Below, in pieces: positions 1,352-64,000 of a DNA stretch of 64,000 nucleotides; the first letter of the stretch is position 1, and each line of letters begins with the position of its first letter. This DNA is from a virus (lineage: Duplodnaviria > Heunggongvirae > Uroviricota > Caudoviricetes): the IMG/VR virus record IMGVR_UViG_3300032167_000028, one strand, 5' to 3'. The notes below the pieces were generated by a model. That model had not been told where the DNA came from, ran no database searches, and saw only the letters and a list, made by a program, of their open reading frames with translations. The position numbers and the translations under genes were made by a program.

Positions 1352-1381
1352 GAAAAGTCAAAAAATGCGGCTTAGCCGCAT
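1352..1381 (-). terminator. intrinsic terminator after PurA-like gene
   Basis: hairpin TGCGGCTTAGCCGCA followed on the minus strand by a U-tract. Confidence 0.5.
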
Positions 1382-2457
1382 TAAATATCTAGTTTAGACA
1401 TAGTATCTTCTTTCCAACTACCGTGGATATTCGTAATAAAAGATGGCTTCTGAATTTCCGCAAACTCATTCTTACCAACAGCAATACGACCATTGGTATA
1501 ATTCATCTGCGTAAAAACCATATGAGCATTAACATTGTGATAATGCTGAAAGTCACGCTGGACACGATTGTAAAGTGTACGTTCCTTAATATAACCAAAA
1601 CGTAAATCATCCTGCCAATCATTATGCTGGTTAGTCTTATCTACGATTAGAGGGTTAATATCCTCCTTCGCACATTCTGCTTCCATCTCACCAACACCAT
1701 GTCGCGTCATATAGGTGCGAGAAACATAATACACATCTGTCGGTGCTCCAACAGTGCGGATAAGTTCAGCAATATTATAATGACCAACGCTAGAGGGGGT
1801 AAGGTGCTTCGTAAAACCAATCAAAGATTGGTCAAGAAGTAGTCCCTGACCGCCCTCGAAAATAATTGTATCATAATTAATCACTACCTCATCAAAAGTA
1901 GCAATCTTACAGTTAGACACAACCCATCCAATGGCTCGCATCCAATTATCAAGATTATAAAGTTCATCTTCGCCGCAGTCATACTGCTCAAGAATCGCCT
2001 TTACCTTAGGATAGATATTCCATGCATCAGTCATTTCCGCGGCATACAAACTAAACTCCTGCGTAGCATTACGCTTAGAAGCTTCAAAAATGCCCAGACC
2101 ACAAGAACCATGCTTTGATCCACCACGAGCAAGTTCCTTCTTACGATTGCGTACAACATCACAAGGAAGAACAACGCGGCAATGCGGGTCAATAATAGGA
2201 GTTTCCTGCGTTAAAAAAAGAGCAATTGGATCAAGTAGGAACTTTTCGTGGTAAAAGGTGTCGCTACCGACAAGAGCACCAGTGCCAAGGCAATGGAACA
2301 CTTTACCGCCAGCAGTATGGCCACGCTGGACGCCACCATTATAAAGAACGGTAAGAACCTTATGATTCTTTTCCGCCGCTTCCTTTGCTAGACAATAGGA
2401 TACAAGACCCTTTCCTTCGTCACCAAGGTTGGCACCAGTTACCACTTTAATTTCCAT
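1381..2457 (-). CDS. adenylosuccinate synthetase family protein, short form (PurA-like; PurZ candidate)
   Basis: 358 aa. VVTGANLGDEGKG matches the PurA P-loop VVLGTQWGDEGKGK; GGVQRGHT matches GGHNAGHT; IIFEGGQGLLLD matches VMFEGAQGTLLD; YYVSRTYMTRHG matches YSTRVGAGPF. About 70 aa shorter than cellular PurA. Confidence 0.75.
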   Translation of the reverse strand: MEIKVVTGANLGDEGKGLVSYCLAKEAAEKNHKVLTVLYNGGVQRGHTAGGKVFHCLGTGALVGSDTFYHEKFLLDPIALFLTQETPIIDPHCRVVLPCDVVRNRKKELARGGSKHGSCGLGIFEASKRNATQEFSLYAAEMTDAWNIYPKVKAILEQYDCGEDELYNLDNWMRAIGWVVSNCKIATFDEVVINYDTIIFEGGQGLLLDQSLIGFTKHLTPSSVGHYNIAELIRTVGAPTDVYYVSRTYMTRHGVGEMEAECAKEDINPLIVDKTNQHNDWQDDLRFGYIKERTLYNRVQRDFQHYHNVNAHMVFTQMNYTNGRIAVGKNEFAEIQKPSFITNIHGSWKEDTMSKLDI

Positions 2458-28590: not shown

Positions 28591-28609
28591 TTAGATGTTC
28601 AACATCTAA
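28591..28609. repeat. 19-bp palindrome (copy 4) centred between divergent promoters
   Basis: minus -35 at 28576-28581 and plus -35 at 28619-28624, each about 10 bp from the palindrome. Confidence 0.95.
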
Positions 28610-28618
28610 AAATGGTTA

Positions 28619-28647
28619 TTGACTTTTTGTTTTAGGTGTGCTATACT
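28619..28647 (+). promoter_or_regulatory. sigma70-type promoter TTGACT-17-TATACT
   Basis: drives exonuclease gene. Confidence 0.7.
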
Positions 28648-28677
28648 ATCAGTACCAACTGAAAGGAAGTGCATAAA

Positions 28678-29436
28678 ATGAATGTCGTTGTATTCGACAC
28701 CGAAACCGCAAACATGCAGAAACGTTTCTGCTATAATGTCGGGTATGTTATCCTTGACATTTCTACTGGTGAAAAGCTGGTGGAGCGTGACTTTGTAGTG
28801 GAGCAGATTTGGCATAATGTTGAACTGTTTGCAACTGCCTATTATGCGGACAAGCGTGAACTGTATGTCAAGAAAATGCGTTCGCGTAAAGCGGTCATGG
28901 ATAAATGGGGTTATATCATGCAAACTATGATGCGTGATTTCAAGCGGCATGAAGTGGTTTGTGCGTATGCGTATAACTCTCCATTCGATGACAAAGTGTT
29001 TACCTTTAACTGTGATTGGTTCAAAACTCAGAATCCTTTTGACACGATTCCCATTTACGATCTTATGGGACTTGCCTGCGACTGTATCACGCAGTATGAT
29101 ACCTATCATAGTTACTGCGAAGAACACGAGTTTTTCACCGAATCCGAAACCGAGTATTCCATCACCGCAGAAACAGTCTATAGGTTCATCACCGATGACC
29201 CGACTTTTGTAGAAGAACACACCGCCCTTGCGGATGCACGAATTGAAGCAACCATTTTGATGCATTGTCTGAATATGGGGGCATATCCTGACCGAGAATA
29301 TCCGGTTGTGCATCAGAAACGAGTGATTGAACGTCCGTTCAAAGTGACCGTTGATGGACAAGTTGTCGCAGAAGGAAAGTACATCAAGAAGTGGCGGCGA
29401 GGGGACATTGTTAAATATACGACAAAGAACGGATAA
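28678..29436 (+). CDS. DnaQ-like (DEDD) 3'-5' exonuclease
   Basis: MNVVVFDTETANMQ (Exo I motif), 252 aa. Confidence 0.7.
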   Translation: MNVVVFDTETANMQKRFCYNVGYVILDISTGEKLVERDFVVEQIWHNVELFATAYYADKRELYVKKMRSRKAVMDKWGYIMQTMMRDFKRHEVVCAYAYNSPFDDKVFTFNCDWFKTQNPFDTIPIYDLMGLACDCITQYDTYHSYCEEHEFFTESETEYSITAETVYRFITDDPTFVEEHTALADARIEATILMHCLNMGAYPDREYPVVHQKRVIERPFKVTVDGQVVAEGKYIKKWRRGDIVKYTTKNG

Positions 29437-29453
29437 CATCCGTTCTTTCTTTA
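29426..29453 (+). terminator. intrinsic terminator
   Basis: AGAACGGAT-AAC-ATCCGTTCT + TTCTTTAT. Confidence 0.6.
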
Positions 29454-29462
29454 TGCGTGATT

Positions 29463-29481
29463 TTAGATGTTCAACATCTAA
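29463..29481. repeat. 19-bp palindrome (copy 5)
   Basis: exact; lies between two convergent terminators, no promoter. Confidence 0.95.
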
Positions 29482-29501
29482 TATATAAAAAATAAGGATG
29501 A

Positions 29502-29897
29502 TTATTCATCATCCTTGAACATGTTTCGCATGGTTTCGTAAGTGTGCTCAAACTCCTTGAAGTCCTTCCACTCCGAATCATCGCAGTCGTAATAGTAACA
29601 ACCTGCACCGTATTCAAAGGCATCCTGCCAACCATGTTTGTCCCACGGAGAGCCATAACCAACGGTACGCAGAATTTCGTGCAAGGTCGCCGCCTCTTCT
29701 GCACTGTGCGTCTTGATGTAATAGAAGTCCTCATAAACGAGATTGTCCTCGTTCAGAAGTGGCATCGGTTCGCCGTAGCGGTCGAACAACTTGAATCCAA
29801 GATGTTCTTTGGGAATGGTGGAAACGGTTTCATACAGTTCGCAATCTTCCTCAGAATCGAACTCTTTGCCGTCATAAGCACGATAAACGATATCCAT
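29502..29897 (-). CDS. hypothetical protein (131 aa)
   Basis: AAAGGAG RBS; terminator hairpin AAGGATGAT-TATTC-ATCATCCTT at its 3' end. Confidence 0.6.
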   Translation of the reverse strand: MDIVYRAYDGKEFDSEEDCELYETVSTIPKEHLGFKLFDRYGEPMPLLNEDNLVYEDFYYIKTHSAEEAATLHEILRTVGYGSPWDKHGWQDAFEYGAGCYYYDCDDSEWKDFKEFEHTYETMRNMFKDDE

Positions 29898-29925
29898 ATT
29901 TTTCTCCTTTCATTTGTGGAAGGTT

Positions 29926-30087
29926 TTACCCTTCCACAATCTTCCATCCATCTTTGTCAAGGTTTTCCATTAGATTGGCGGCGAAGGTTACACATTCTTC
30001 ATCCGACCATCCAAGGTTGTTGCGAAGGTTGTCGCACGCCGCTTCAATCGCCGCGTTGAGTACGGTTGTCGTGATAGTCTTTTCCAT
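29926..30087 (-). CDS. hypothetical small protein (53 aa)
   Basis: AGGAG RBS; MEKTITTTVLNAAIEAACDNLRNNLGWSDEE... Confidence 0.5.
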   Translation of the reverse strand: MEKTITTTVLNAAIEAACDNLRNNLGWSDEECVTFAANLMENLDKDGWKIVEG

Positions 30088-30155
30088 GTTGTTCGCTCCT
30101 TTTCTTTTTGTGATTATATTCTATCATAAAAAAGAGAATTTGTCAACAAATACTA

Positions 30156-30174
30156 TTAGATGTTCAACATCTAA
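30156..30174. repeat. 19-bp palindrome (copy 6)
   Basis: exact; minus -35 TGTCAA 30141-30146. Confidence 0.95.
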
Positions 30175-30214
30175 AAATCTTTGAAAATAAAATAAAATAA
30201 TTTCAAAAAACCTA

Positions 30215-30243
30215 TTGACAAAAGTGGCAACATAGTATATACT
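30215..30243 (+). promoter_or_regulatory. sigma70-type promoter TTGACA-17-TATACT
   Basis: upstream of CDS 30292. Confidence 0.65.
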
Positions 30244-30291
30244 ATAATTGTTCCAAGGAACAAAACAAATAAAAGAAAAGAGGAAACAAAC

Positions 30292-30879
30292 ATGACTAAC
30301 AAGAACTTCATCAACCTGCGTTCCCACTATGTACCGGATGAAATCCGCGTCAATCCGTTGTTCAACAATGCTCAGGAGTGCTTTGATGCTATGATGCTGA
30401 GCATGGTTCAGAGATGGTATGACCGTTTGACTGACGATGCCCACAAGGCAATCAGGATTCTGAAGTTTAATCCTACTGTGGTGACTGGTATGATGTTCTT
30501 CACCGACGGTTCTATGGATGAAAAGCCGCAGTACTTCGGTAGCGACTATGAGGACATCGGCACCGAAATGAAGAACTTCGCCCTGTCTCTTGCCCAGAAT
30601 GATGAAGAATACGAGAAGTGTCAGACCCGTGGTTATGTCCGCTGGTATAGCCGCATGGCTCAGTCGATCCGCTGGTATCAGAAGGGTATCGAAGATATCG
30701 AAAAGACGCACGAACTGACGCTTTCCATTCTGCCGCACGAACTGAAAGAAAAGGTTATCGAACAGATTGTGTCTACCGATCCTGTCTGTCAGATGGCGGC
30801 ACGCAACTACTATGAAGCACTGGAAGATGGACGCAAGGACATGCTTCGCAATGCTTTGCAGAAGATGAGGGGTGTATAA
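30292..30879 (+). CDS. hypothetical protein (195 aa)
   Basis: ORF track; own promoter; terminator hairpin 30863-30885. Confidence 0.65.
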   Translation: MTNKNFINLRSHYVPDEIRVNPLFNNAQECFDAMMLSMVQRWYDRLTDDAHKAIRILKFNPTVVTGMMFFTDGSMDEKPQYFGSDYEDIGTEMKNFALSLAQNDEEYEKCQTRGYVRWYSRMAQSIRWYQKGIEDIEKTHELTLSILPHELKEKVIEQIVSTDPVCQMAARNYYEALEDGRKDMLRNALQKMRGV

Positions 30880-30901
30880 CCCCTCTTTCTTTTGCTGGAG
30901 G

Positions 30902-30920
30902 TTAGATGTTGAACATCTAA
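30902..30920. repeat. 19-bp palindrome (copy 7, G centre)
   Basis: exact; GCTGGAGG at 30893-30900 abuts it. Confidence 0.95.
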
Positions 30921-30943
30921 TAATTAGAAATGAAAAAGAGGTC

Positions 30944-31354
30944 TTAATAGACCTCAATGGAGTAGATATACTGTTCTTCTTCCTTGACGAAGGTGTTAAG
31001 CACCATGCCGGTGTCATCAACTTCAAGGAAACGACGAGTGACCCTCTTAGAATCACGACGCATTTCAGGCATGGTCGGCTTCTTCACGGTCGGATACTTG
31101 CGGCGGCTATCATGGGAAGCATAACCAAGTCCGGCGACGCTTGCCTTGATGCTGGTGCGTTCGGTTTCATCGTCAGTCATGAGAGCGGCAATCTGAGCGG
31201 CGGTTTTGTTGGGATGATTCACCATTACGCCGCGAAGCTGTTGCAGATATTCACGATGCTCGATTTCATCTCGGACGCGGAGATCATGCAACTGCATACG
31301 AAGAATGTCCATCTCGTGGTTAGCCTTCTTGCGATTCTGGAAGTGATTTGCCAT
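30944..31354 (-). CDS. hypothetical protein (136 aa)
   Basis: ORF track; promoter TTGACT-17-TATACT at 31399-31427 on minus. Confidence 0.6.
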   Translation of the reverse strand: MANHFQNRKKANHEMDILRMQLHDLRVRDEIEHREYLQQLRGVMVNHPNKTAAQIAALMTDDETERTSIKASVAGLGYASHDSRRKYPTVKKPTMPEMRRDSKRVTRRFLEVDDTGMVLNTFVKEEEQYIYSIEVY

Positions 31355-31436
31355 GTTTATTTACCTTCTTTCTTTTATTATCCCCTTGGGATGATTAGAG
31401 TATATCATAGTATAGAAAGAAAGTCAATACCTTTTA

Positions 31437-31455
31437 TTAGATGTTCAACATCTAA
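31437..31455. repeat. 19-bp palindrome (copy 8)
   Basis: exact. Confidence 0.95.
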
Positions 31456-31480
31456 AAGTTTCCAATAAAAAAGGGGAGGA

Positions 31481-32473
31481 TTACTCCTCACCCATAGGAA
31501 TGTCGATAATCGGAAGAGCACCAGAACCACCCATCATATAAGTCGGGAGAGTACCTTCCCAACGCTGGGCATATTCATAAGCGACGATTTCATCAGTAAT
31601 TGCGGCGGCCTGTGCGGCAATGGCTTCGGCTTCCTTCTGACCCTTATATGCGATTGCATCGGCCTCAAGCTGGGCGACTTCATAATCTGCCTGTGCCTTT
31701 ACCTTTGCGGCTTCGGCATCTGCGTCGGCGTTAATCTTACGAATAGCCGCGTCATTTTCTGCCTGAATCTTGGTACGCTCGGCAAGCTGACGGGAACGCT
31801 CGGTTTCCATTGCCTGCTGGGTCTTATCGCGAAGGGCTTCCTGCTCTGCAACCTGCTTGGCTTCGATGGCATTGGTGTATGCATCGGTGAAGTCAAAGTC
31901 ATCAAGGAACACCATTGCTTCAATGCCATAGTTCTGGGCATACGCAGAAACATGCTCATTGATTTCAGACTGAATCAGAGTACGAGTTTCGGTCATGTCT
32001 TCGGCTTCACGCAGACCAAACGCGGCCTTAACAGAGTTATTTACCTGCGGCTTGATAAGGATATTAAAGTAATCTACGCCGACAGTCTTGTAAATATTCG
32101 GTGCGGCAGAGGGAAGCAGATTATACTTTACAGTATAAGTATAAGTCACTTCCTGAAGATCCTTACTGAAAGAGACATTAGATTCAGTAAAGGTCTGTTC
32201 CTTATTGGTCATGGTAACAATCGTCTGCCACGGCTTGTGGAAATTCAGACCATTACCAAGTGAAACATCTTCGACCCTACCGAACGTAGAAAGGATGCCC
32301 GTATGGCCGGTTGGAACGGTAGAAGTGCAAGCAAGGAACATGGTAATGCCTGCAACAACGAGACATGCAACCATTACGATAGTACCAAGACCCTTGGCCT
32401 TCATCTTACGCAGAATCATCATGGCACACAGACCGCCGACAAGAAGGATAACGGAAAAGATAATTGCGAACAT
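31481..32473 (-). CDS. SPFH / band-7 (prohibitin-like) domain membrane protein
   Basis: N-terminal TM helices, TGHTGILSTFGRVEDVSLGNGLNFHKPW SPFH core, Ala/Glu/Gln-rich coiled-coil tail. Confidence 0.7.
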   Translation of the reverse strand: MFAIIFSVILLVGGLCAMMILRKMKAKGLGTIVMVACLVVAGITMFLACTSTVPTGHTGILSTFGRVEDVSLGNGLNFHKPWQTIVTMTNKEQTFTESNVSFSKDLQEVTYTYTVKYNLLPSAAPNIYKTVGVDYFNILIKPQVNNSVKAAFGLREAEDMTETRTLIQSEINEHVSAYAQNYGIEAMVFLDDFDFTDAYTNAIEAKQVAEQEALRDKTQQAMETERSRQLAERTKIQAENDAAIRKINADADAEAAKVKAQADYEVAQLEADAIAYKGQKEAEAIAAQAAAITDEIVAYEYAQRWEGTLPTYMMGGSGALPIIDIPMGEE

Positions 32474-32520
32474 TGGGATATTCTCCTTTTCTTTTTGTTC
32501 TGTTCTCTTGGAACGATATT

Positions 32521-32549
32521 AGTATAGCATAGGAATATGAAATTGTCAA
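32521..32549 (-). promoter_or_regulatory. sigma70-type promoter TTGACA-17-TATACT (minus strand)
   Basis: plus-strand AGTATA 32521-32526 and TGTCAA 32544-32549; AAGGAG RBS before SPFH gene. Confidence 0.7.
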
Positions 32550-32558
32550 TAATAATTA

Positions 32559-32577
32559 TTAGATGTTAAACATCTAA
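32559..32577. repeat. 19-bp palindrome variant TTAGATGTTAAACATCTAA (copy 9, A centre)
   Basis: one-base variant. Confidence 0.9.
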
Positions 32578-32598
32578 TATTTCAAAGGAAAGGAAGAT

Positions 32599-33030
32599 TT
32601 AATCTTCCAGTCCGATGATGCTCATATAGTCGCAGTCCTGACCATGAACCGCACGACAGTGAGCGATGGCCTGACCGATGATAGGATCATAACGATCTTC
32701 ATCCACGTTCAGACGGGCAGTGCCCACATGCTTCTTAAGCTTGCCCCAAGTGTTAGGGATATAACCCACACAAGTGGTAATGTAGTTGGAGTGCATGTAG
32801 CGGATGTCCTGCATATGCGGACGCTCATGAATCTTCTCAACATACTTAGCACAAGCGTCGTGCCAAGCGTCGGCAACATCCTGACGATACTTCTTAAGGA
32901 CAACGCTTCCATTGTCAAGGAAGATTTCAAGCGGCTCGCCTTCCTTGATCTTCATAACCTTGCGGATTTCCTTCGGAATAACCACACGACCGAGTTCATC
33001 AATGCGACGCACGATACCAGTACACTTCAT
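32599..33030 (-). CDS. AbrB/SpoVT-family DNA-binding regulator (N-terminal swapped-hairpin domain) with C-terminal extension
   Basis: MKCTGIVRRIDELGRVVIPKEIRKVMKIKEGEPLEIFLDNGSVVLKK. Confidence 0.7.
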   Translation of the reverse strand: MKCTGIVRRIDELGRVVIPKEIRKVMKIKEGEPLEIFLDNGSVVLKKYRQDVADAWHDACAKYVEKIHERPHMQDIRYMHSNYITTCVGYIPNTWGKLKKHVGTARLNVDEDRYDPIIGQAIAHCRAVHGQDCDYMSIIGLED

Positions 33031-33046
33031 AATTCATTTTCCTTTC

Positions 33047-33205
33047 TTACTTCTTCTTATAGGCAGTATAGGGACAGGTAGGACAGGAACAGGAATAGCC
33101 CTTCTTGGTGTTACTCCAACTCGGATAACTTGCAAGGAAGGTTGTGCCGCACTTGTAGCACTTAAATTCGATTACCTTAGGTGCGCCCGTAACTACGATA
33201 GACAT
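33047..33205 (-). CDS. small zinc-ribbon protein (52 aa)
   Basis: MSIVVTGAPKVIEFKCYKCGTTF...CSCPTCPY; 2x CxxC; AAGGAAAA RBS. Confidence 0.5.
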   Translation of the reverse strand: MSIVVTGAPKVIEFKCYKCGTTFLASYPSWSNTKKGYSCSCPTCPYTAYKKK

Positions 33206-33253
33206 GATACATTTTCCTTTCTGTTAGTTGTTGTGTTCCTTACTGACAAACAT

Positions 33254-33282
33254 AGTATAGCATAATGCTGGAGGTTTGTCAA
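33254..33282 (-). promoter_or_regulatory. sigma70-type promoter TTGACA-17-TATACT with GCTGGAGG/CCTCCAGC inside the spacer
   Basis: plus-strand AGTATA 33254-33259, GCTGGAGG 33267-33274, TGTCAA 33277-33282. Confidence 0.65.
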
Positions 33283-33291
33283 TTCTTTTTA

Positions 33292-33310
33292 TTAGATGTA
33301 TTACATCTAA
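33292..33310. repeat. palindrome variant TTAGATG-TATTA-CATCTAA (copy 10)
   Basis: arms conserved, centre changed; overlaps the 3' end of the tRNA-like element. Confidence 0.85.
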
Positions 33311-33378
33311 TATTGTGAGGGTGTGGAAGGATTTGAACCTTCCATTTAACTTCGCCCCTTAGGCAGGGCTACTATAAC
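33305..33378 (-). tRNA. degenerate tRNA-like element with canonical T-arm; anticodon region contains CUA (possible amber-suppressor tRNA or pseudo-tRNA)
   Basis: minus strand GGGTGAGCAGGTTATAGTAGCCCTGCCTAAGGGGCGAAGTTAAATGGAAGGTTCAAATCCTTCCACACCCTCA: acceptor 6/7 bp, GGAAGG-TTCAAAT-CCTTCC T-arm; D and anticodon arms do not fold into a regular 5-bp/7-nt cloverleaf by hand. Confidence 0.4.
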
Positions 33379-33380
33379 CT

Positions 33381-33456
33381 GCTCACCCATATGGTGCCCG
33401 TGGAGGGGATCGAACCCTCGACACCCAGATTAAAAGTCTGGTGCTCTACCGACTGA
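33381..33456 (-). tRNA. tRNA-Lys (anticodon UUU)
   Basis: minus strand GCTCGTGTAGCTCAGTCGGTAGAGCACCAGACTTTTAATCTGGGTGTCGAGGGTTCGATCCCCTCCACGGGCACCA; anticodon stem CCAGA/TCTGG, loop CTTTTAA; CCA encoded. Confidence 0.9.
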
Positions 33457-33648
33457 GCTACACGAGCAAGGAAACGGGGTCTGGCTATGCCACGTACCCC
33501 GACGTGACCGGGCGGTTGCTGTTCCTGCCCTGATGACGATTAGACTTTAACCGGCCTTCGCCGTGTTGCAACCTTCTCTCATGCAGTTCCTTTCGCGGCC
33601 AAGGTGCGCACCGTCTTGCCGCATGGTGCCGAACTCTACCCTATATAC
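33457..33648 (-). ncRNA. GC-rich structured spacer between tRNAs (unassigned RNA element)
   Basis: about 58% GC in an AT-rich context; hairpins CGGGGT-N14-ACCCCG (33472-33500); remnant tRNA 3' end TGGTGCCGAAC at 33613; no convincing ORF. Confidence 0.35.
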
Positions 33649-33732
33649 ATAAGAGAATTTGGTGCCGATGGTGGGATTTGAACCCACACGCTTTAGGCCG
33701 CAGATTTTGAGTCTGCTGTGTCTGCCGTTCCA
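33649..33732 (-). tRNA. tRNA-Leu (anticodon CAA), type II with long variable arm
   Basis: minus strand GCCGGTG...GCAGA-CTCAAAA-TCTGC...GTGGGTTCAAATCCCACCATCGGCACCA. Confidence 0.85.
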
Positions 33733-33918
33733 CCACACCGGCGTAGTCTGGGATCGTTGCCCAGTGCGGATCTCAGGAGTATTTCGGGACGCGTCCTGAG
33801 TTGGCTAAGCGCGTAGTAGCGAATTAACAACTGCTACCCCATCGGTAAGCGTTGAGAGTTTCAAAGGTCTTAGGAAATTCATCCGACTAGGCTTTTCCTC
33901 TCTCAACCTTACATACTT

Positions 33919-34041
33919 ATTATACATCAGATTTTGAGATTTGTCAATAGTTTTTTTGAAATTCTTTTTTCTTTTTTCAACTGTTGTTTTCATCTCTCAA
34001 CCTTGTAAATATAGTATACACTAAATTTTTGAAATTGTCAA
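33919..34041 (-). promoter_or_regulatory. two tandem duplicated sigma70-type promoters (TTGACA-17-TATAAT and TTGACA-17-TATACT), each followed by AAGGTTGAGAGA, driving the tRNA island
   Basis: plus-strand ATTATA 33919-33924 / TGTCAA 33942-33947 and AGTATA 34013-34018 / TGTCAA 34036-34041; TCTCTCAACCTT at 33899-33910 and 33994-34005. Confidence 0.65.
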
Positions 34042-34050
34042 TATTTAATT

Positions 34051-34069
34051 TTAGATGTTCAACATCTAA
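34051..34069. repeat. 19-bp palindrome (copy 11)
   Basis: exact. Confidence 0.95.
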
Positions 34070-34087
34070 TATCAAAAGGAAGGTGCT

Positions 34088-34588
34088 TTACAGCACCAAT
34101 CCTTCAATCGCTCGGTGAAAACTGCGGCTTGCGTCAATAGTTTTGAAATTACATTTGATATTGTCGCCAAACTTACGCCATGCCGAACGGACTTCCTTAT
34201 TGTCATCGACCAAATAAGAAACATCATACGGACAATAGTTGTTGTGCATGTCCCACATAAACTGTCCCTTGTCACATCCATAGGGGATGCAAGCAAACTT
34301 ACCATCAGCAAGAGCAGGGAAGAAGCGGCAAAGCCAAGCGAATTTTGTCTCGGTAATGGCGTCCAGTTCCTCACCCCAATCAATGCCCTTGCTTGCCCAA
34401 GTGATAACGCCTACTTGCCAACCATTTTCGATCAGTGCTTCGATGGCGGCGTTGATGCGTTCAAAGTGGGCACGCGGCAAGCATTTGTCATAGACGCTCC
34501 AATCATTAGAGCGGAGAGCAGGCAACCAATCCTTGACCTTATACAGTTCCGCGATAGTGCCATCCATGTCAAACCAAATGCTGTTCAT
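34088..34588 (-). CDS. HAD-superfamily 5'(3')-deoxyribonucleotidase-like phosphatase
   Basis: MNSIWFDMDGTIAELY (DxDGT motif I), 166 aa. Confidence 0.65.
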   Translation of the reverse strand: MNSIWFDMDGTIAELYKVKDWLPALRSNDWSVYDKCLPRAHFERINAAIEALIENGWQVGVITWASKGIDWGEELDAITETKFAWLCRFFPALADGKFACIPYGCDKGQFMWDMHNNYCPYDVSYLVDDNKEVRSAWRKFGDNIKCNFKTIDASRSFHRAIEGLVL

Positions 34589-34691
34589 TGTGTAACCTTC
34601 TTTCTTTGTTTTTGTAATTAGATTATAGCATACCTTTGTACCGTTGTCAATACTGTTTTTAATATTTCTTGCGTTATTTGCTGGAGGAGAA

Positions 34692-34710
34692 CTAGATGTT
34701 CAACATCTAA
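34692..34710. repeat. palindrome copy 12 (CTAGATGTTCAACATCTAA, first base changed)
   Basis: GCTGGAGG at 34679-34686 just upstream. Confidence 0.9.
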
Positions 34711-34729
34711 AACAGAAAGAAGGGGATGA

Positions 34730-34969
34730 TTAAATCATCCCTGTACGATGGTATGCGGACTGCTGGCGACCTTGTATATACTCTTCCGCACTGATAGCAA
34801 TGCAACTCATAACGCCGCGGCTATGCTTCACGCCCGGCATACGCCTTGCGATATTCGACGCGTGAAGGGCATTCTTTGCCGCAATGTAAAAAGTGATAGA
34901 GGACGAGCGACCGCGTCCCTGATGGGCACGATGAGTAGTAACGCGATAGTATTTCTGTCCAAGTTCCAT
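34730..34969 (-). CDS. hypothetical protein (79 aa)
   Basis: internal ATG 34967-34969 with AGGAG RBS; MELGQKYYRVTTHRAHQGRGR... Confidence 0.5.
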   Translation of the reverse strand: MELGQKYYRVTTHRAHQGRGRSSSITFYIAAKNALHASNIARRMPGVKHSRGVMSCIAISAEEYIQGRQQSAYHRTGMI

Positions 34970-35038
34970 TGTTTTTGCTCCTTTCGTTCTTTGTGAATAC
35001 ATTATAGCATAGATTTTTTTATTTGTCAACAATTGATT

Positions 35039-35057
35039 TTAGATGTTGAACATCTAA
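35039..35057. repeat. 19-bp palindrome (copy 13, G centre)
   Basis: exact; minus promoter TGTCAA 35024-35029 / ATTATA 35001-35006. Confidence 0.95.
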
Positions 35058-35081
35058 TTCTTGTGCGAAAAAGATGGGATG

Positions 35082-36086
35082 TTATACATCCCATGTTGTA
35101 TACATAAACTGTTCCAGTTCGTCAATCTTGCGGAGAATCTGCTTTTGATAGTTACTACATTCTTCATACTCGATGTTATCCGGCAGATAATCTTTCATCT
35201 GATTAAGAACCATGTTTGCCATTTCCCAAGTAACGCCGCGTCCTTTCATTACGAATTCAACGGTATCACCAAGCATCTTATATGGAAAGAAGACGATGCC
35301 TTGAATCAGTTTGCCACGCTTGAGAGAAGCGAACAAAAGTTCGGTTTCGATTTCAGCATCACTCAATGCGGTATGATCTTCGATGAAGTCAAACTTCTTA
35401 GAAAAGAATTGCATTGCACTTTCCGCACTAGTCGAAAAGTAAATGCCTGTATTGCTGACACGCTTGTTTTCGAGACAAGACTTTTTGTATGCCGCACAAT
35501 TCAAAATGTACGTACAAGCCAGACCCCAAATATCAATCATCGGATAAGATACGCCGCGAAGAATGAAGTTGTCCTTGTCAAAGTTATGGGATTCACGCTT
35601 TGACTTTGTGCGGAGAATTTTTGCACACGCTTCCTTTTGCTGTTCTTCCCATTCGTAGTAAGAGGGGGAGTAGAGACGCTTGATATACTGTTCCGTAAAG
35701 ATGATTGCTTTCTTGAAGTCAAACATTGCGTTATACGCACAAATCCAAGAACACTTGCTCAAGTCCTGAATCAGGATTTCCATAATAGTATTCCATGGCA
35801 AGATTTCGATTTCTCCACGCTCAAGCATTCCAAGATAGAGAGGACGCTTTTCGTGATAGTAAGCGGTATTGAAGATAGCAGGAACAGCGAACGTCTCAGC
35901 AACAAGATAGCTCCTACGCTCAATGATACCATGAGAACGGGTAGCAATAGTCCATCCGATATCATAAACAAGCGGCTTTGCAATAGCAATCTTCTTCTTA
36001 TCATCAGAAGACAGATTCCATTCGTTCACAAAAGGAAGGGTGCAGGTCTCAGTATCGAGAATCATGTAATAAATGGGCTTGCTCAT
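35082..36086 (-). CDS. DnaQ-like (DEDD) exonuclease domain protein, second paralog
   Basis: MSKPIYYMILDTETCTL...VYDIGWTIA; 334 aa. Confidence 0.65.
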   Translation of the reverse strand: MSKPIYYMILDTETCTLPFVNEWNLSSDDKKKIAIAKPLVYDIGWTIATRSHGIIERRSYLVAETFAVPAIFNTAYYHEKRPLYLGMLERGEIEILPWNTIMEILIQDLSKCSWICAYNAMFDFKKAIIFTEQYIKRLYSPSYYEWEEQQKEACAKILRTKSKRESHNFDKDNFILRGVSYPMIDIWGLACTYILNCAAYKKSCLENKRVSNTGIYFSTSAESAMQFFSKKFDFIEDHTALSDAEIETELLFASLKRGKLIQGIVFFPYKMLGDTVEFVMKGRGVTWEMANMVLNQMKDYLPDNIEYEECSNYQKQILRKIDELEQFMYTTWDV

Positions 36087-36118
36087 GGTGATTACCTTCT
36101 TTCTTAATTTCTAATAAG

Positions 36119-36147
36119 ATTATACCATAGGCAACACCATTTGTCAA
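36119..36147 (-). promoter_or_regulatory. sigma70-type promoter TTGACA-17-TATAAT (minus)
   Basis: plus ATTATA 36119-36124, TGTCAA 36142-36147; followed upstream by an A-tract, GCTGGAGG (36166-36173) and the palindrome. Confidence 0.7.
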
Positions 36148-36177
36148 CAACAATTTTTTATATTTGCTGGAGGGGAA

Positions 36178-36196
36178 TTAGATGTTGAACATCTAA
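36178..36196. repeat. 19-bp palindrome (copy 14, G centre)
   Basis: exact. Confidence 0.95.
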
Positions 36197-36219
36197 ATTT
36201 CCCAAAGGGGAAAGGGCGA

Positions 36220-36717
36220 TTACTCGCCCTTGTAGAAGTAGTAGTTCTTGCCCTTTTCGGTACGCTTGTCAAGCACGCCAGCGGTGAACAGTTCCTTGGC
36301 ATCAGAACCGACCGTCATGATGACGCACTCACCGTAGACCTCCGGCATCGCTTCCTTGATCTCGGTACAGGTATGCTCGCCGGGGTTGTCCTTCATCCAC
36401 TCGGTCAGAGCCGCCTTGCGTGCTTCCTTCGCCGCCTGCTTGGCAGGGTCAGCACCAGAGGACTTCTTGGGGGTAGCCGCCTTTTCCGCCTGCTTAGCGG
36501 AAAACTCGGCGTACTCAGCGACAGCGGCATCGAAATCAAATGCCTTGTTGACCTTGGTATCCTTGGCAAGCAGGGCGGATACCTTAACCGCGTAGTAGGT
36601 CTGAACGCCGTCAACCACATCGCCCGGAACAGCGAGGAAATTGGAGTTAGAGCGGCGGCACATGGTAGCACCAGTGCAAGCGGTAGAGATGGTGTCGATC
36701 AGGTTCTGCATAGTCAT
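36220..36717 (-). CDS. paralog-family protein A3
   Basis: 165 aa; KAFDFDAAV ... KA-rich ... ; ~58% GC. Confidence 0.7.
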   Translation of the reverse strand: MTMQNLIDTISTACTGATMCRRSNSNFLAVPGDVVDGVQTYYAVKVSALLAKDTKVNKAFDFDAAVAEYAEFSAKQAEKAATPKKSSGADPAKQAAKEARKAALTEWMKDNPGEHTCTEIKEAMPEVYGECVIMTVGSDAKELFTAGVLDKRTEKGKNYYFYKGE

Positions 36718-59330: not shown

Positions 59331-59364
59331 AGAGCTCCCGTTAACGCGGGAGCTCTTTTTTTGT
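59331..59364 (+). terminator. intrinsic terminator
   Basis: AGAGCTCCCG-TTAA-CGCGGGAGCTCT + TTTTTTT. Confidence 0.75.
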
Positions 59365-59385
59365 TATAAGGAGGGAAAAGGAAAT

Positions 59386-62300
59386 ATGGCAGTAAAGATT
59401 ACAATACCTGTTAATTTTCAAGATAGTGCTTAGTCGTATAAGAAAATTATAGCTTCTTTGCAGTCTGAATTAAAAAAGGTTAAACCTGGTACTGCGATAT
59501 ATGAAAATATATCATCTTAGTTAAAAAAGGCCAACAGTTTAATTTTAAAACTGGAAGGAAGTATTGGCTAGGGCGTGGCCTCTCATGCTGAAATTGAAAG
59601 AATGATTAAAGATTTTTCTTCTTTACAGACAGTGGTAGAAAGTGTTAATGATGCCTATACTACAATGTCTATTAAGAATTTAAATATAAATTCTGAAAAT
59701 TTTGGCAATTTAGCAAAAGATTTAGTTGATGCTGCATCACAATTAACTAAAGCTAAGAAGGCTTTAACAGATGCCGAAAGCCTTAATATTGGAGAGCTTT
59801 TTTAGGGTGATGCTAATATTGGCAAGTTTACTGCAAAACAACTTACCAGTAAAGGTAAAAGTTTTTATGATAATTTGGCTGCTCAAATTGAACGTCTTGG
59901 AATAAAATCTAATGAAGCAGAACAAGAAATAAAAACTCTTGAACAAAGTTTATTAGATTTATAGCAATAGGCTAATAATTTAAAAAGCGATTCTTTAGCA
60001 GAATCTGTCACAGGAATTGTTGGAACTGCAGGAAGTAAGACAGCTAAAAAAGGCCAATTTGTTTCATTGGCGGATGCACAAACAAATTTATTAAACATTA
60101 CTCAAAATAAATTTTTCACTAAGAAAGGTCTTTTAAAAGCGGGAGTAAGTCAAGATTAGGTAGAAGATTGGTTAAAAGTTTTTGGTATTTCAGATGAATC
60201 AATTGCAAAAATTCTTGAAACCAGTAAAGATCGAATTGAACGTTTACGTCAAGCCATTAATACTGAATTTACCAATACTAAAAAAAATGAATTAACCATT
60301 AAATATCGCGATGCCGCAGCAGAATCTGTTCAACGATAGGCTGTTGAAAGACAAATTGCAGAAGTTAATGCAAATTTAGCAACTGCTCGTTCTACTGCAA
60401 AAGATTATGGTGGAGAATTAAAAGGTATCCAAGAACAATTTAATTTATTAAAAGATAAATTAATTAAACGTGGTGTTCTTGGAGCCACTGAAGGAGAAGC
60501 TGGAGATTTATAGAAATAGATTGATGCTATTGAATAGCAAATGGCTTCTTTACAATCAGCTATTGTAGCACAAGGACCGAGGGCGGAGCATAATTTACCA
60601 GATACTCCAAGTAGAGAAGCAACTGATTACGTTTTTGATGCTGAACGTAATGCTCAACAATTTAAAGATAATTTAAAATCGGCCATTGCTCATTGGCTAA
60701 GTGCTTAGCAAATTATTACAATGGTCAAAGAGGGTATTCGTCAAGCTTGGACAGATATTCAAGGTCTTGATAAGGCAATGACGAATATTGCAGTAGTTAC
60801 AGATATGTCGGTATCTGACCTTTGGGGAAAAATTAACGATTATATGGCAATTGCCCAAGAATATGGTGTAACTACTCAAGGTGTTTATGAAGTTTCTTAG
60901 CTCTATTATCAACAAGGTTTAAATACTAATGAGGTAATGGAAGCAACTACAGAAACTCTTAAAATGGCTCGTATCGCAGGTATGGACTATGCTGAAGCCG
61001 CTGATGCAATGACTGTAGCAATTCGTGCATTTAAGATGGAAATGTCTGATGCATAGATAATCACTGATGTTTATTCTAAAGTTGCAGCAGTTACGGCATC
61101 TGATAGCCAAGAACTTGCTATTGCTATGAGTAAGACAGCTTCTTCTGCTGAAAGTGTAGGAAGTAGTTTTGAAAATACCACTGCTATGTTAGCTGTTATG
61201 ATTGAAACTACTCGTGAATCTGCTCAAAACTTAGGTAGCGCGTTAAAGTCTATTATTTCTCGTTATGGTGAAATGAAAACCGGTCTTACTATTGACAGTG
61301 AGGGCGAAGCAATTGACTACAATAAAGTAGATACTGCTTTACAATCTGTAGGTATTTCTATTAAGGATGCTCAAGGTCAATTCCGTGATTTTGATGATGT
61401 AATTTTCGAACTTTCTAAAAAGTGGGATAGCCTTGATAAAAATACTCAACGTTACATTGCTACAATTATGGCAGGTAACCGTCAACAGTCCCGTTTCATT
61501 GCTTTGGTTGATAACTGGGAACGTTTAGAGGAAGTAAGCGCAGCAGCATATGATAGTGAGGATGCGGGTTTATTACAATATGCTAAAACACTCGATAGTC
61601 TTGAAACTAAATTAAATGCTCTTTCTACAAGTTTTTAGCAATTTTATATGAGTATAATTAATGGTGATACTTTTAAAGGTGCCATTGATTTTATTACTAA
61701 ATTACTAGACGGATTAAATAAGATTGGCTCTTGGACTTCAATTTTTAATATAGCTCTTTTAGCACAGAGTTTAAAAACAGTTGGAACTCTTTTAGTTAAT
61801 GGTTTTTCTGAACCAATGTCTAAAGTTATTTCAGTTTATAGATAGCGTTTTGATGAAATAACAAATTTAGCTTTTATTAAAGGTAGGGAAGCAGGAGAAG
61901 CACATTATAAAGGTTTTCTTACTGCCACCGATAAAACCATACCAAATTCTATTCCTACATAGACTTCTATACCAATACCTTCGACAAAAATTGATTGGTC
62001 TTAGGGTATTGGAAAAGGATTAATTAATTGGATTAAAAAAAATCCAGCAAAATTTAGTTTGGGTGCTTCTGCCGTAGGAAGTCTTGCCACTATAGCAGGT
62101 ACTAAAACGGCTGAAAAAAATTAGAGAGCTGGTTCACTATTATCAATGCTTGGTAGTTCCGCGTCTGGGGCTAGCATGGGAATGTCAATTGCTGGTCTTA
62201 AGGGAGCACTTGTAGGAGCTATTGCTGGAGCATTAGCTAATCTTCCTGCCGTAATAAATAGTTTCGAATTAGACACAATTCTACAAGAAAAAATAGATAA

Positions 62301-64000
62301 AGCTAAGGAAGTTTTTGATGATGCTGAAATTGTAAGAGCTACGAAAAAAGAAGAAGCTCGTAATTTAGCCGCGACAATTGATAATTTAAAAAAATTACAA
62401 CAAGCACGCTATTCTAGTGAAGAGGCTGAAAAAGCTTTTATTGAAGCTTCTAATGCCGCATTTGAATAGTTTCCTCAATTAACCGCCACTTTTGATGAAA
62501 CTGGTAATGCAATTGTAGACGTAATTTCTAAATCTTCTAATGCAGAATATTTATTAATGAAAGCTCGTCAACAATCAGCAAATGCGACCTTAGATGCAGC
62601 TGAGAAAGAGGGTTATTTAAGAACTCAAGAAGAGAAATAGTCTAAAAATGAATATGCACGTTTTTATACTACTGATGTTGCTTCAAGACAATTTTATGAT
62701 ACATTATATGGTAATTTAAGTTTTGCAGATAGAGAAGTTATTAGTTTTGATGCTAATAAATATCGTGAAACCAATGTTTATTCAATGATTAAAGGCTACA
62801 TTGAAGAAATTTATTAGGCATATGGTACAGAAGATATACGTAGTATTAATTTAATTAATGCTCTTAAAAAATCCTTAAAAAGTAGATATAATGTTGATTT
62901 AACTAATAGTAATGATATTTGGTCTGATTTTGAAGGGATAATAGCTGAAGCTAGAAAAGCTTGGACTACTGACTAGAGTCAAATAGATTCAAATAATGCT
63001 TCAATTATTTCTAGTTACTTAACTCAATTAGATTATGAAATTGATCCAACTCAAAGCGAAAGTTGGAAAACCTTATAGGGCGTAAATGACTATTTTGAAA
63101 AATATATTATTGATAAGGTTACAACTGCGGAAGAGTTATTTACTATTGATGAAAAAAATAATAAAAAAATATTAAATGAACAAGGTAAAGCTGCAATTTA
63201 GAAAGCTTATAATGACTTTACAAAATAGATTACTGAAGTATAGACATATTTAAAGAAAAATTTACAAACTGATGAATATGAAAAAGTTATTAAAGATATA
63301 CAAAGTAAAAAAGTTTCTCCTAAATTAATTTAGGAAAGTTTAAACAAGATTTTTAATAATTAGATTCCAAAGGTAATTTAGCAATACTTAGATTCTTATA
63401 GTAAAGAAATAGAAGAACAAGCCAAGTATATTGCACAGTATGCTATTACAAATCTTCCTACACTTTTTGAATGGACTGATGAAGAAAACTTAACCGAAAT
63501 TTTTACAAATCAAGCCGGTTATTCAAGTGGTATTTCTAATGTAATTAAAGATGTTGGAAATCTTGTTGATTCTGGAACAATTGACACTTTATCAGGTTAG
63601 GAATGGATTAAAGCATATATTGATATTTTTGATTCTATTGATACAAATACAAGTTTAACAGAAAAATAGATACATGAAGCAAAAGCTATTCTTACAAATG
63701 AGTCTTCTGATCTTTTTAGTATTAGTGGTTTATTTGATATAGTAACTGCTTTAAAAGATATTGGTATTAGTCCAGAATCAATTGGTTTAAATAATTTAAA
63801 CGCACTGTCTAATAATTTTAATACAGAATTTGCTTCTTTATCAGAGAAAATTGGTAAAGGACTGGAGTCTCTTACTAAAGTATTAAAAAATGCTGCTGAT
63901 GGTTTTGATACTGAAACTGCATCTAACTTAGCAAAATAGTTAAATACAACTTTAAATGATACTAGTAAATTCGAATTTATTGACGGTAAGTGGTTTATAA
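59386..64000 (+). CDS. tail tape measure protein (5' ~4.6 kb; continues past window end), densely populated with in-frame TAG codons
   Basis: AAGGAGG RBS + ATG 59386; TMP core motifs ...VSxLYYQQGLNTNEVMEATTETLKMARIAGMDYAEAADAMTVAIRAFKMEMSDAxIITDVYSKVAAVTASDSQELAIAMSKTASSAESVG (x = TAG); more than 25 TAGs in frame and no TAA/TGA. Confidence 0.8.

Follow-up and report, generated by a model that had tools for sequence, protein, structure and literature searches.

Which tRNA reads the TAG codons of a phage that has recoded them, and is it the tRNA-like element with a CUA triplet that lies beside two ordinary tRNA genes in the Caudoviricetes record IMGVR_UViG_3300032167_000028? The question arose from a first-pass annotation of a 64,000-nt stretch of this record (the whole of which is called the window below), in which TAG recoding was taken as given and the element was named as a candidate amber suppressor or its remnant. 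Recoding of the late genes was confirmed: coverage of the window by open reading frames (ORFs) of at least 150 amino acids rose from 67% to 86% with TAG as a sense codon, the densest recoding in the window was found in an ORF at 59332-64000(+), which runs off the window end and has 33 in-frame TAGs in 1556 codons, and the ORF of the terminase large subunit (TerL) was continuous only with its in-frame TAGs read through. Genes of the early region (28-44 kb) had almost no TAG codons. The phage is distantly related to the phAss-1/Enterococcus EF1 group (38% identity to phAss-1 in the major capsid protein and 35% in TerL), and phAss-1 itself decodes TAG as Gln with ordinary tRNA-Sup-CTA genes that tRNAscan detects (PMC10607447). 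In the present phage, few TAG positions that would be informative about the encoded amino acid lie within conserved proteins.

The tRNA-like unit was located at 33388..33318(-), where it comprises 71 nt including the discriminator U and has no encoded CCA; the interval to which it had first been assigned (33305-33378, 74 nt) is offset from this unit by about 10-13 nt. It starts 3 nt past the CCA of tRNA-Lys(UUU), on the same strand, so that its place directly 3' of this tRNA on the minus strand had been described correctly. The RNA reads, from 5' to 3', GGGUGAG CA GGUU AUAGU AGCC C UGCCUAAGGGGCGAAGUUAAAUG GAAGG UUCAAAU CCUUC CACACCC U. The acceptor 5' strand GGGUGAG (33382..33388) pairs at 6/7 positions with CACACCC (33319-33325); the sixth pair is an A.A mismatch, and five pairs have an ensemble probability of 0.76. 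The discriminator U (33318) is followed by CAC, not CCA, and both neighbouring tRNAs encode CCA. The T-arm GAAGG-UUCAAAU-CCUUC (33326..33342) is canonical (5 bp, extendable to 7), has a pairing probability of ~1.0 in the ensemble and matches the 5-bp T-stem with UUCRANY loop of RF00005; it is the sole part of the element that aligns confidently to phage tRNAs. Both of these arms were found as the first-pass annotation had given them, and the irregular D and anticodon regions, the C at position 8 and the loop of 6 or 8 nt that it had reported were seen again in the sequence and in the fold.

Between the two intact arms, a possible 4-bp D-stem GGUU/AGCC (33376-33379 with 33367-33370) lies exactly at the place of a D-stem, with C8 instead of U8 and a D-loop (AUAGU) of 5 nt that has a single G and no G18G19. 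The CUA noted earlier in the presumed anticodon region is indeed present, at 33362-33360(-) within GCCCUGCCUAAGGGGC. In the minimum-free-energy fold it is displayed by a central hairpin, GCCCU-GCCUAA-GGGGC (33354..33369), as positions 3-5 of a 6-nt loop (8 nt once a U.G pair opens), and is preceded by C where U33 would be expected. The hairpin takes the 3' strand of the D-stem, and the two are thus mutually exclusive, with ensemble probabilities of ~0.70 for the hairpin vs ~0.24 for the D-stem. The fold of minimum free energy (-25.4 kcal/mol, z=-1.97) consists of the acceptor stem, the GCCCU/GGGGC hairpin and the T-arm, and a forced cloverleaf-like fold reached -12.6 kcal/mol, 13 kcal/mol worse. 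When the D-stem was kept in register, the best 17-nt anticodon arm paired at 3/5 positions around the loop UAAGGGG; when the hairpin was read as the anticodon arm, the D-arm was absent and the variable region had 11 nt.

Likeness to a tRNA was weighed against chance by searching the 64 kb, on either strand, for T-arms, defined as a perfect 5-bp stem around UU[CU][AG]AN[UC]. There were 3 sites only, all in this tRNA cluster and on the same strand, and 2/3 were the real tRNAs. The distance from the acceptor 5' end to the T-stem is 46 nt in the element vs 48 nt in tRNA-Lys. The chance of a third T-arm site at most 80 nt from a tRNA with an acceptor of at least 6/7 pairs at tRNA spacing was estimated, roughly and from the scan counts, at ~5e-5, which argues that the element is tRNA-derived or a tRNA mimic and not noise. 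Acceptor, T-arm, spacing and operon position likewise indicate tRNA origin or mimicry, and on this point the pseudo-tRNA or remnant option of the first-pass annotation held.

A coincidental origin would require that the 'T-arm' be the terminator-type hairpin of a repeated intergenic module (hairpin, palindrome, promoter); the 3' hairpin of the next gene, GGAAGAUUAAAUCUUCC, does precede the same palindrome and a promoter, and the two modules align at 75% identity over 69 nt (blastn). However, the element hairpin is followed by ACACCCUCACAAUA instead of a U-tract, its loop is exactly UUCAAAU, and a 6/7 acceptor and a 4-bp D-stem stand at tRNA spacing 3 nt past a real tRNA, a combination covered by the joint chance of ~5e-5. 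The likeness of the module hairpins appears real but partial, leaving T-loop, acceptor and D-stem unexplained, and coincidence is given a very slim chance. An attP site, for which the phage would have copied the 3' half of a host tRNA gene in order to integrate there, would account for the fact that the intact part is the 3' half (T-arm and acceptor strand), as in attP sites that target tRNA genes, but the 5' acceptor strand is present in the element as well. The exact 25-mer of T-arm and acceptor strand occurred in 0 of 185,579 bacterial and archaeal species genomes (one each, GTDB) and was also absent from IMG/VR and JGI metagenomes; a 21-mer had 2 matches, one to a tRNA-Tyr in the tRNA array of a Deinococcales MAG and one outside tRNA genes in an Opitutia MAG. 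This is about as many as chance would give, and neither of the two is a credible host for the phage. As the ten flanking ORFs that were scanned (28606-36717) also contained no integrase, an attP origin is barely credible.

The first-pass annotation had proposed ARAGORN and covariance models for deciding whether the element is a tRNA, and none of these made a call. ARAGORN reported two tRNAs only in the window, left the element uncalled and found no tmRNA; Rfam at gathering threshold gave tRNA-Lys and tRNA-Leu only, and a permissive Rfam scan of the full window (E<=1) added no tRNA-like match. In an Infernal search of 100 nt centred on the element, the top match was tRNA-Sec with 13.1 bits (E=2.6; gathering score 47), aligned with high posterior only at the T-arm and acceptor, and RF00005 scored below 13.1 bits (gathering score 29). 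A 5-bp anticodon stem that closes a 7-nt loop is absent from the element, as are U33 and U8. By brute force, no canonical CUA arm was found in the window, and no contiguous or split CUA arm of 5 bp and 7 nt in the cluster. From the lack of a usable anticodon arm, U8 and U33, together with model scores at noise level, we infer that the element is unable to read UAG or any other codon. Asked whether it is the tRNA that decodes TAG in this phage, we answer in the negative for this element, which should not be annotated as tRNA-Sup.

A non-canonical amber suppressor, which would use the GCCCU/GGGGC hairpin as its anticodon arm (a 6- or 8-nt loop with CUA) and do without a D-arm, is highly improbable, even though TAG is recoded in the late genes, CUA is followed by A within the hairpin loop, other irregular tRNA genes exist in the same genome and neither the window nor ~20 kb of flank yielded a canonical tRNA(CUA). 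In either form the loop has C or G at the place of U33, and CUA does not stand at positions 34-36. The missing D-arm, the 11-nt variable region, C8, the acceptor mismatch and the noise-level scores of the tRNA models all speak against it, as do G1-C72 and U73, which we take to be unlike tRNA-Gln. An 8-nt loop, the version of a suppressor that the first-pass annotation had offered as an example, would imply quadruplet reading, and this conflicts with in-frame TAGs that keep the reading frame. Moreover, the phAss-1 group uses ordinary tRNA-Sup-CTA genes (PMC10607447).

The search for the suppressor was extended beyond the window into a flank made up of contig L014 (same genome, 10 kb past the left end of the window) and contig L171 (a relative, YqeY protein 95% identical, ~10 kb further). 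The clean tRNA-Sup(CUA) elsewhere in the genome, on which the first-pass annotation had let the case for a degenerate remnant depend, did not appear in the window and this flank of ~20 kb, about half of the genome. The tRNAs of L014 and L171 were Glu(CUC), Ile(UAU), an odd Leu(UAG)-like one, and Asn, Tyr and Asp genes that bear insertions. The suppressor is either encoded in the genome half beyond window and flank or present in a form that standard tools miss; the latter is conceivable because insertion-bearing tRNA genes of the same genome escape ARAGORN, and a suppressor tRNA could be hidden by an insertion in the same way.

These interrupted genes are tRNA-Asn(GUU) (L014:15438-15552, 44-nt insertion) and tRNA-Tyr(GUA) (L014:15300-15431, 50-nt insertion), which belong to the same genome and lie 4-10 kb beyond the left end of the window, and tRNA-Asp(GUC) (L171:233-344, 41-nt insertion) of the close relative. 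In all three the insertion is placed between anticodon-stem positions 29 and 30, its removal leaves a perfect cloverleaf, and the anticodon is of the G34-U35 (queuosine) type. A hairpin with compensatory changes and the motif GUGUCUGCAAUGA are common to the insertions in Asn and Asp, to which the Tyr insertion is only loosely similar (...UGCAA...AAUU). ARAGORN misses the interrupted tRNAs, the Rfam tRNA model gives 45-48 bits for Asn and Asp, and the Tyr gene was recognised only via its T-arm and acceptor and by removal of the insert. The 41-50-nt insertions matched no ribozyme family, and to our knowledge short introns of such a kind have not been described from bacterial or phage tRNAs.

Other irregular units were seen on L014. 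A 1.3-kb non-coding stretch with abundant GNRA loops (L014:14285-15573) surrounds tRNA-Glu(CUC), and 38 nt before this tRNA lies a unit (L014:14702-14806) with a tRNA-like T-arm and acceptor (6/7) and an aberrant 80-nt body, which by its arms would be the same kind of object as the tRNA-like element of the window. The Leu-like tRNA (L014:19021-19114, 94 nt; Rfam 53.9 bits, '???' in ARAGORN) has normal acceptor, D and T arms, the loop CUUAGAA (UAG), a bulged and mismatched anticodon stem and a variable arm of 22 nt. A GatB/YqeY-domain gene extends from L014:20291 onward. Near the left end of the window, the ORF at 1381-2457(-) encodes a homologue of adenylosuccinate synthetase (PF00709) whose best match is the PurZ-type PHROG 1211 (E=1.5e-33), and the phage may accordingly be one that replaces adenine with 2-aminoadenine in its DNA.

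Within the window, the element is the last unit of a tRNA operon on the minus strand. tRNA-Leu(CAA) (33660-33742(-), Rfam 56.7 bits) and tRNA-Lys(UUU) (33392-33467(-), Rfam 73.7 bits) were both called by ARAGORN, both have an encoded CCA, and the CAA anticodon of the former, which the first-pass annotation had read as one change away from CUA, was confirmed here and is CAA in every relative as well. They are separated by a G+C-rich structured spacer of 192 nt (33468-33659(-)), which is conserved in several relatives and partly in L011 and L169, and is replaced in others. Several loops of the GNRA type and a conserved motif, GGCGAAGGCCGGUUAAAGUCUAAUCGU, occur in this spacer, which matched no Rfam family; its YrlA (Y RNA-like) matches were rejected, as they use the D-arm of tRNA-Lys and, at 18-24 bits, stay well short of the gathering score of 69. 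Structure and conservation are also seen in the leader that precedes tRNA-Leu (33743-33918). Two tandem sigma-70-type promoters, recognised by consensus match only (34041-34013(-) and 33947-33919(-); 11/12 and 12/12 positions), would drive a transcript of tRNA-Leu, tRNA-Lys and the element.

On its 3' side the element is followed, in this order, by CACAAUA, by a 15-bp palindrome AGATGTATTACATCT (33294-33308(-)), which forms the downstream cassette boundary, and by the promoter of the next gene (TTGACA-17-TATACT, 33282-33254(-), a consensus match). No intrinsic terminator was found between tRNA-Lys and this promoter; the element hairpin was considered as one and rejected for want of a U-tract after it. 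The palindrome, AGATGT-N3-ACATCT (mostly AGATGTTSAACATCT), has 25 copies in the window between 26895 and 43149 vs 0.03 expected, and in relatives takes the variant form ACATGTTAAACATGT. Four intergenic regions (32400-34700) were checked, and in each of them it precedes a consensus sigma-70-type promoter, with ~12 nt between palindrome and -35 hexamer in three of the four; at two of the four it comes after the terminator hairpin of the previous gene. Probably it serves the early region as an operator or regulatory module. The palindrome and the tRNA genes interrupted by 41-50 nt are more unusual than the element itself.

Just upstream of the tRNA operon, a gene at 34088-34588(-) encodes a 166-aa protein that is weakly like the phosphatase domain of polynucleotide kinase (PNKP; PHROG 415 at E=8e-5, Pfam PF25109 under its cutoff). 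tRNA-Lys(UUU) is a classic target of anticodon nucleases, and its proximity to a PNKP-like protein hints at a module for tRNA repair or counter-defence.

Homologues of this adjacent 166-aa gene led to contigs of nine related lineages. The same genes are also carried by the JGI contigs Ga0257090_10018110 and Ga0187911_10002027 and by Logan/ENA contigs of 50-200 kb. No close relative was present in the cultured-phage collection or in IMG/VR; the 166-aa protein alone, used as query, retrieved no IMG/VR locus, and an alignment of its homologues retrieved ~150 loci, almost all of them distant, at 28-41% identity, with rumen samples as a frequent source. No further copy of the element was found in 165 related loci (0.8 Mb). 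Gene content and the tRNA-Leu/tRNA-Lys pair are kept across the related lineages, and tRNA-Lys itself scarcely varies. Directly 3' of tRNA-Lys(UUU) (window 33312-33391), by comparison, there are at least five alleles, namely four unrelated structured cassettes and an empty site. Allele A is the tRNA-like element, present in the window (L001 is identical) and in L009; allele B, an unrelated cassette of ~88 nt, is found in L004, L005, L006, L013 and L166; allele C, a different cassette of ~150 nt, in L011 and L012; and allele D, a fourth sequence, in L175. In L169 and L170 the site is empty and reads CACCA-UCUUUUAU-palindrome-promoter. No allele matched Rfam, and folding of allele B gave hairpins and no covariation.

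The spread of the alleles does not follow the phylogeny of the flanking proteins, which implies that the position has been exchanged by recombination: the 166-aa homologues P0005 (L166, allele B) and P0007 (L009, allele A), for instance, are 90% identical. To judge from these contigs, the site downstream of tRNA-Lys has the look of a hot spot at which small non-coding cassettes recombine. The element is absent from 7/9 related lineages, represented by short contigs and one of them with an empty site, and since other lineages have replacements or nothing at this position, it is dispensable. Provided that these relatives are recoded as well, a suppressor that is essential for the late genes would hardly be so dispensable, and this weighs further against the amber suppressor option of the first-pass annotation.

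The two copies of allele A are, at the same time, identical. Between the window and L009, tRNA-Lys and the element form an identical run of 156 nt, although flanking genes differ by 22-24% and the non-tRNA parts of the operon by 7-13%; there are zero substitutions in the 78 nt of the element region, and divergence resumes ~5 nt past the acceptor end. The upstream spacer of L009 is non-homologous to that of the window, which shows that recombination took place at that border. With two independent copies, the identity could reflect either purifying selection or recent transfer of the cassette.

This identity in two lineages would be compatible with a functional tRNA mimic that selection maintains and that phages exchange among themselves as an accessory cassette, an idea that we regard as unlikely but worth keeping in view. 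Such a mimic would consist of the acceptor/T-arm 'top half' and a hairpin displaying CUAAG, and would be one of several interchangeable cassettes after tRNA-Lys(UUU). As a decoy or sponge it could draw off host enzymes or defence nucleases that respond to the shape of a tRNA, or it could shield the 3' end of the tRNA transcript as a processing or stability module; in this specific form, too, the proposal is a doubtful one. In its favour, no substitution separates the 78 nt of lineages whose adjacent non-coding sequence differs by 7-13%, conservation stops at the 3' boundary of the element, several alternative structured cassettes occupy the same position, and the neighbours (tRNA-Lys(UUU) and the weakly PNKP phosphatase-like gene) hint at tRNA damage and repair. 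However, two copies only are known, and their identity would follow just as well from recent recombination; the element is lacking in most relatives, one of which has nothing at the site, and it matches no known family.

The reading that we prefer, with a probability of roughly 0.6, is that the element is a tRNA-derived cassette unable to decode, be it a tRNA gene that has decayed or a 'top-half' module of a tRNA, which stands last in the tRNA-Leu/tRNA-Lys unit; its identity in L009 counts against a freely decaying relic, in which changes would have been expected. As such a cassette, the element would come last in a transcript driven by the two tandem promoters in front of tRNA-Leu. The acceptor/T-arm half of a tRNA is what RNase P, RNase Z and the CCA-adding enzyme recognise, and because the element has kept this half, its RNA is probably still cut at the 5' end. 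The RNase P cut would probably fall at G33388, leaving tRNA-Lys with a 3-nt trailer and freeing a tRNA-like RNA of ~71 nt. The small RNA so released would be non-decoding, and we favour an inert relic over a selected mimic.

Comparison with known systems places the element as follows. With the suppressors of TAG-recoded gut phages (phAss-1, crAss-like) it shares its context, namely a gut phage with late genes full of in-frame TAG and a CUA in the tRNA cluster, but the phAss-1 suppressors fold as canonical cloverleaves that tRNAscan-SE picks up, with CUA at 34-36 (PMC10607447), and the element fails every tRNA model. tRNA-Pyl has a 5-nt D-loop without G18G19 and a CUA, as the element does, yet differs from it in having a 6-bp anticodon stem and the 7-nt loop CUCUAAA, and it needs PylS. 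The tRNA-like domain of tmRNA and mascRNA resemble the element in that an acceptor is stacked on a T-arm and no anticodon arm serves for decoding. In contrast to them, the element scored 12.6 bits with the permuted tmRNA model, which is noise, gave no match to mascRNA, and has no G3.U70 pair, no encoded CCA and no tag reading frame.

T4 provides a further parallel. Species 1 and 2 (rnaC/rnaD) are small, stable, non-decoding RNAs of unknown function at the end of the T4 tRNA cluster, which are co-transcribed with the tRNAs and whose tRNA-like ends are handled by tRNA processing enzymes. The element is like them in its position at the end of a tRNA cluster and in its mimicry of acceptor and T-arm; it is unlike them in that there is no sequence similarity, and the T4 RNAs are experimentally stable whereas the element is known from sequence alone. 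For tRNA pseudogenes and remnants of phages the agreement extends to several features, as these lie head-to-tail with real tRNAs, keep the acceptor and T-arm while the body degenerates, and are gained and lost among relatives. The element departs from a neutral tRNA relic in being perfectly conserved between two diverged lineages, and a blastn search of 50,697 phage records for its parent tRNA gave generic T-arm matches at E>=0.05 and no parent. Judged by arms and position, it appears to be a degenerate tRNA-like unit of the sort known from tRNA clusters of phages, and the cassette position that it marks, at the 3' end of the tRNA operon, is hypervariable.
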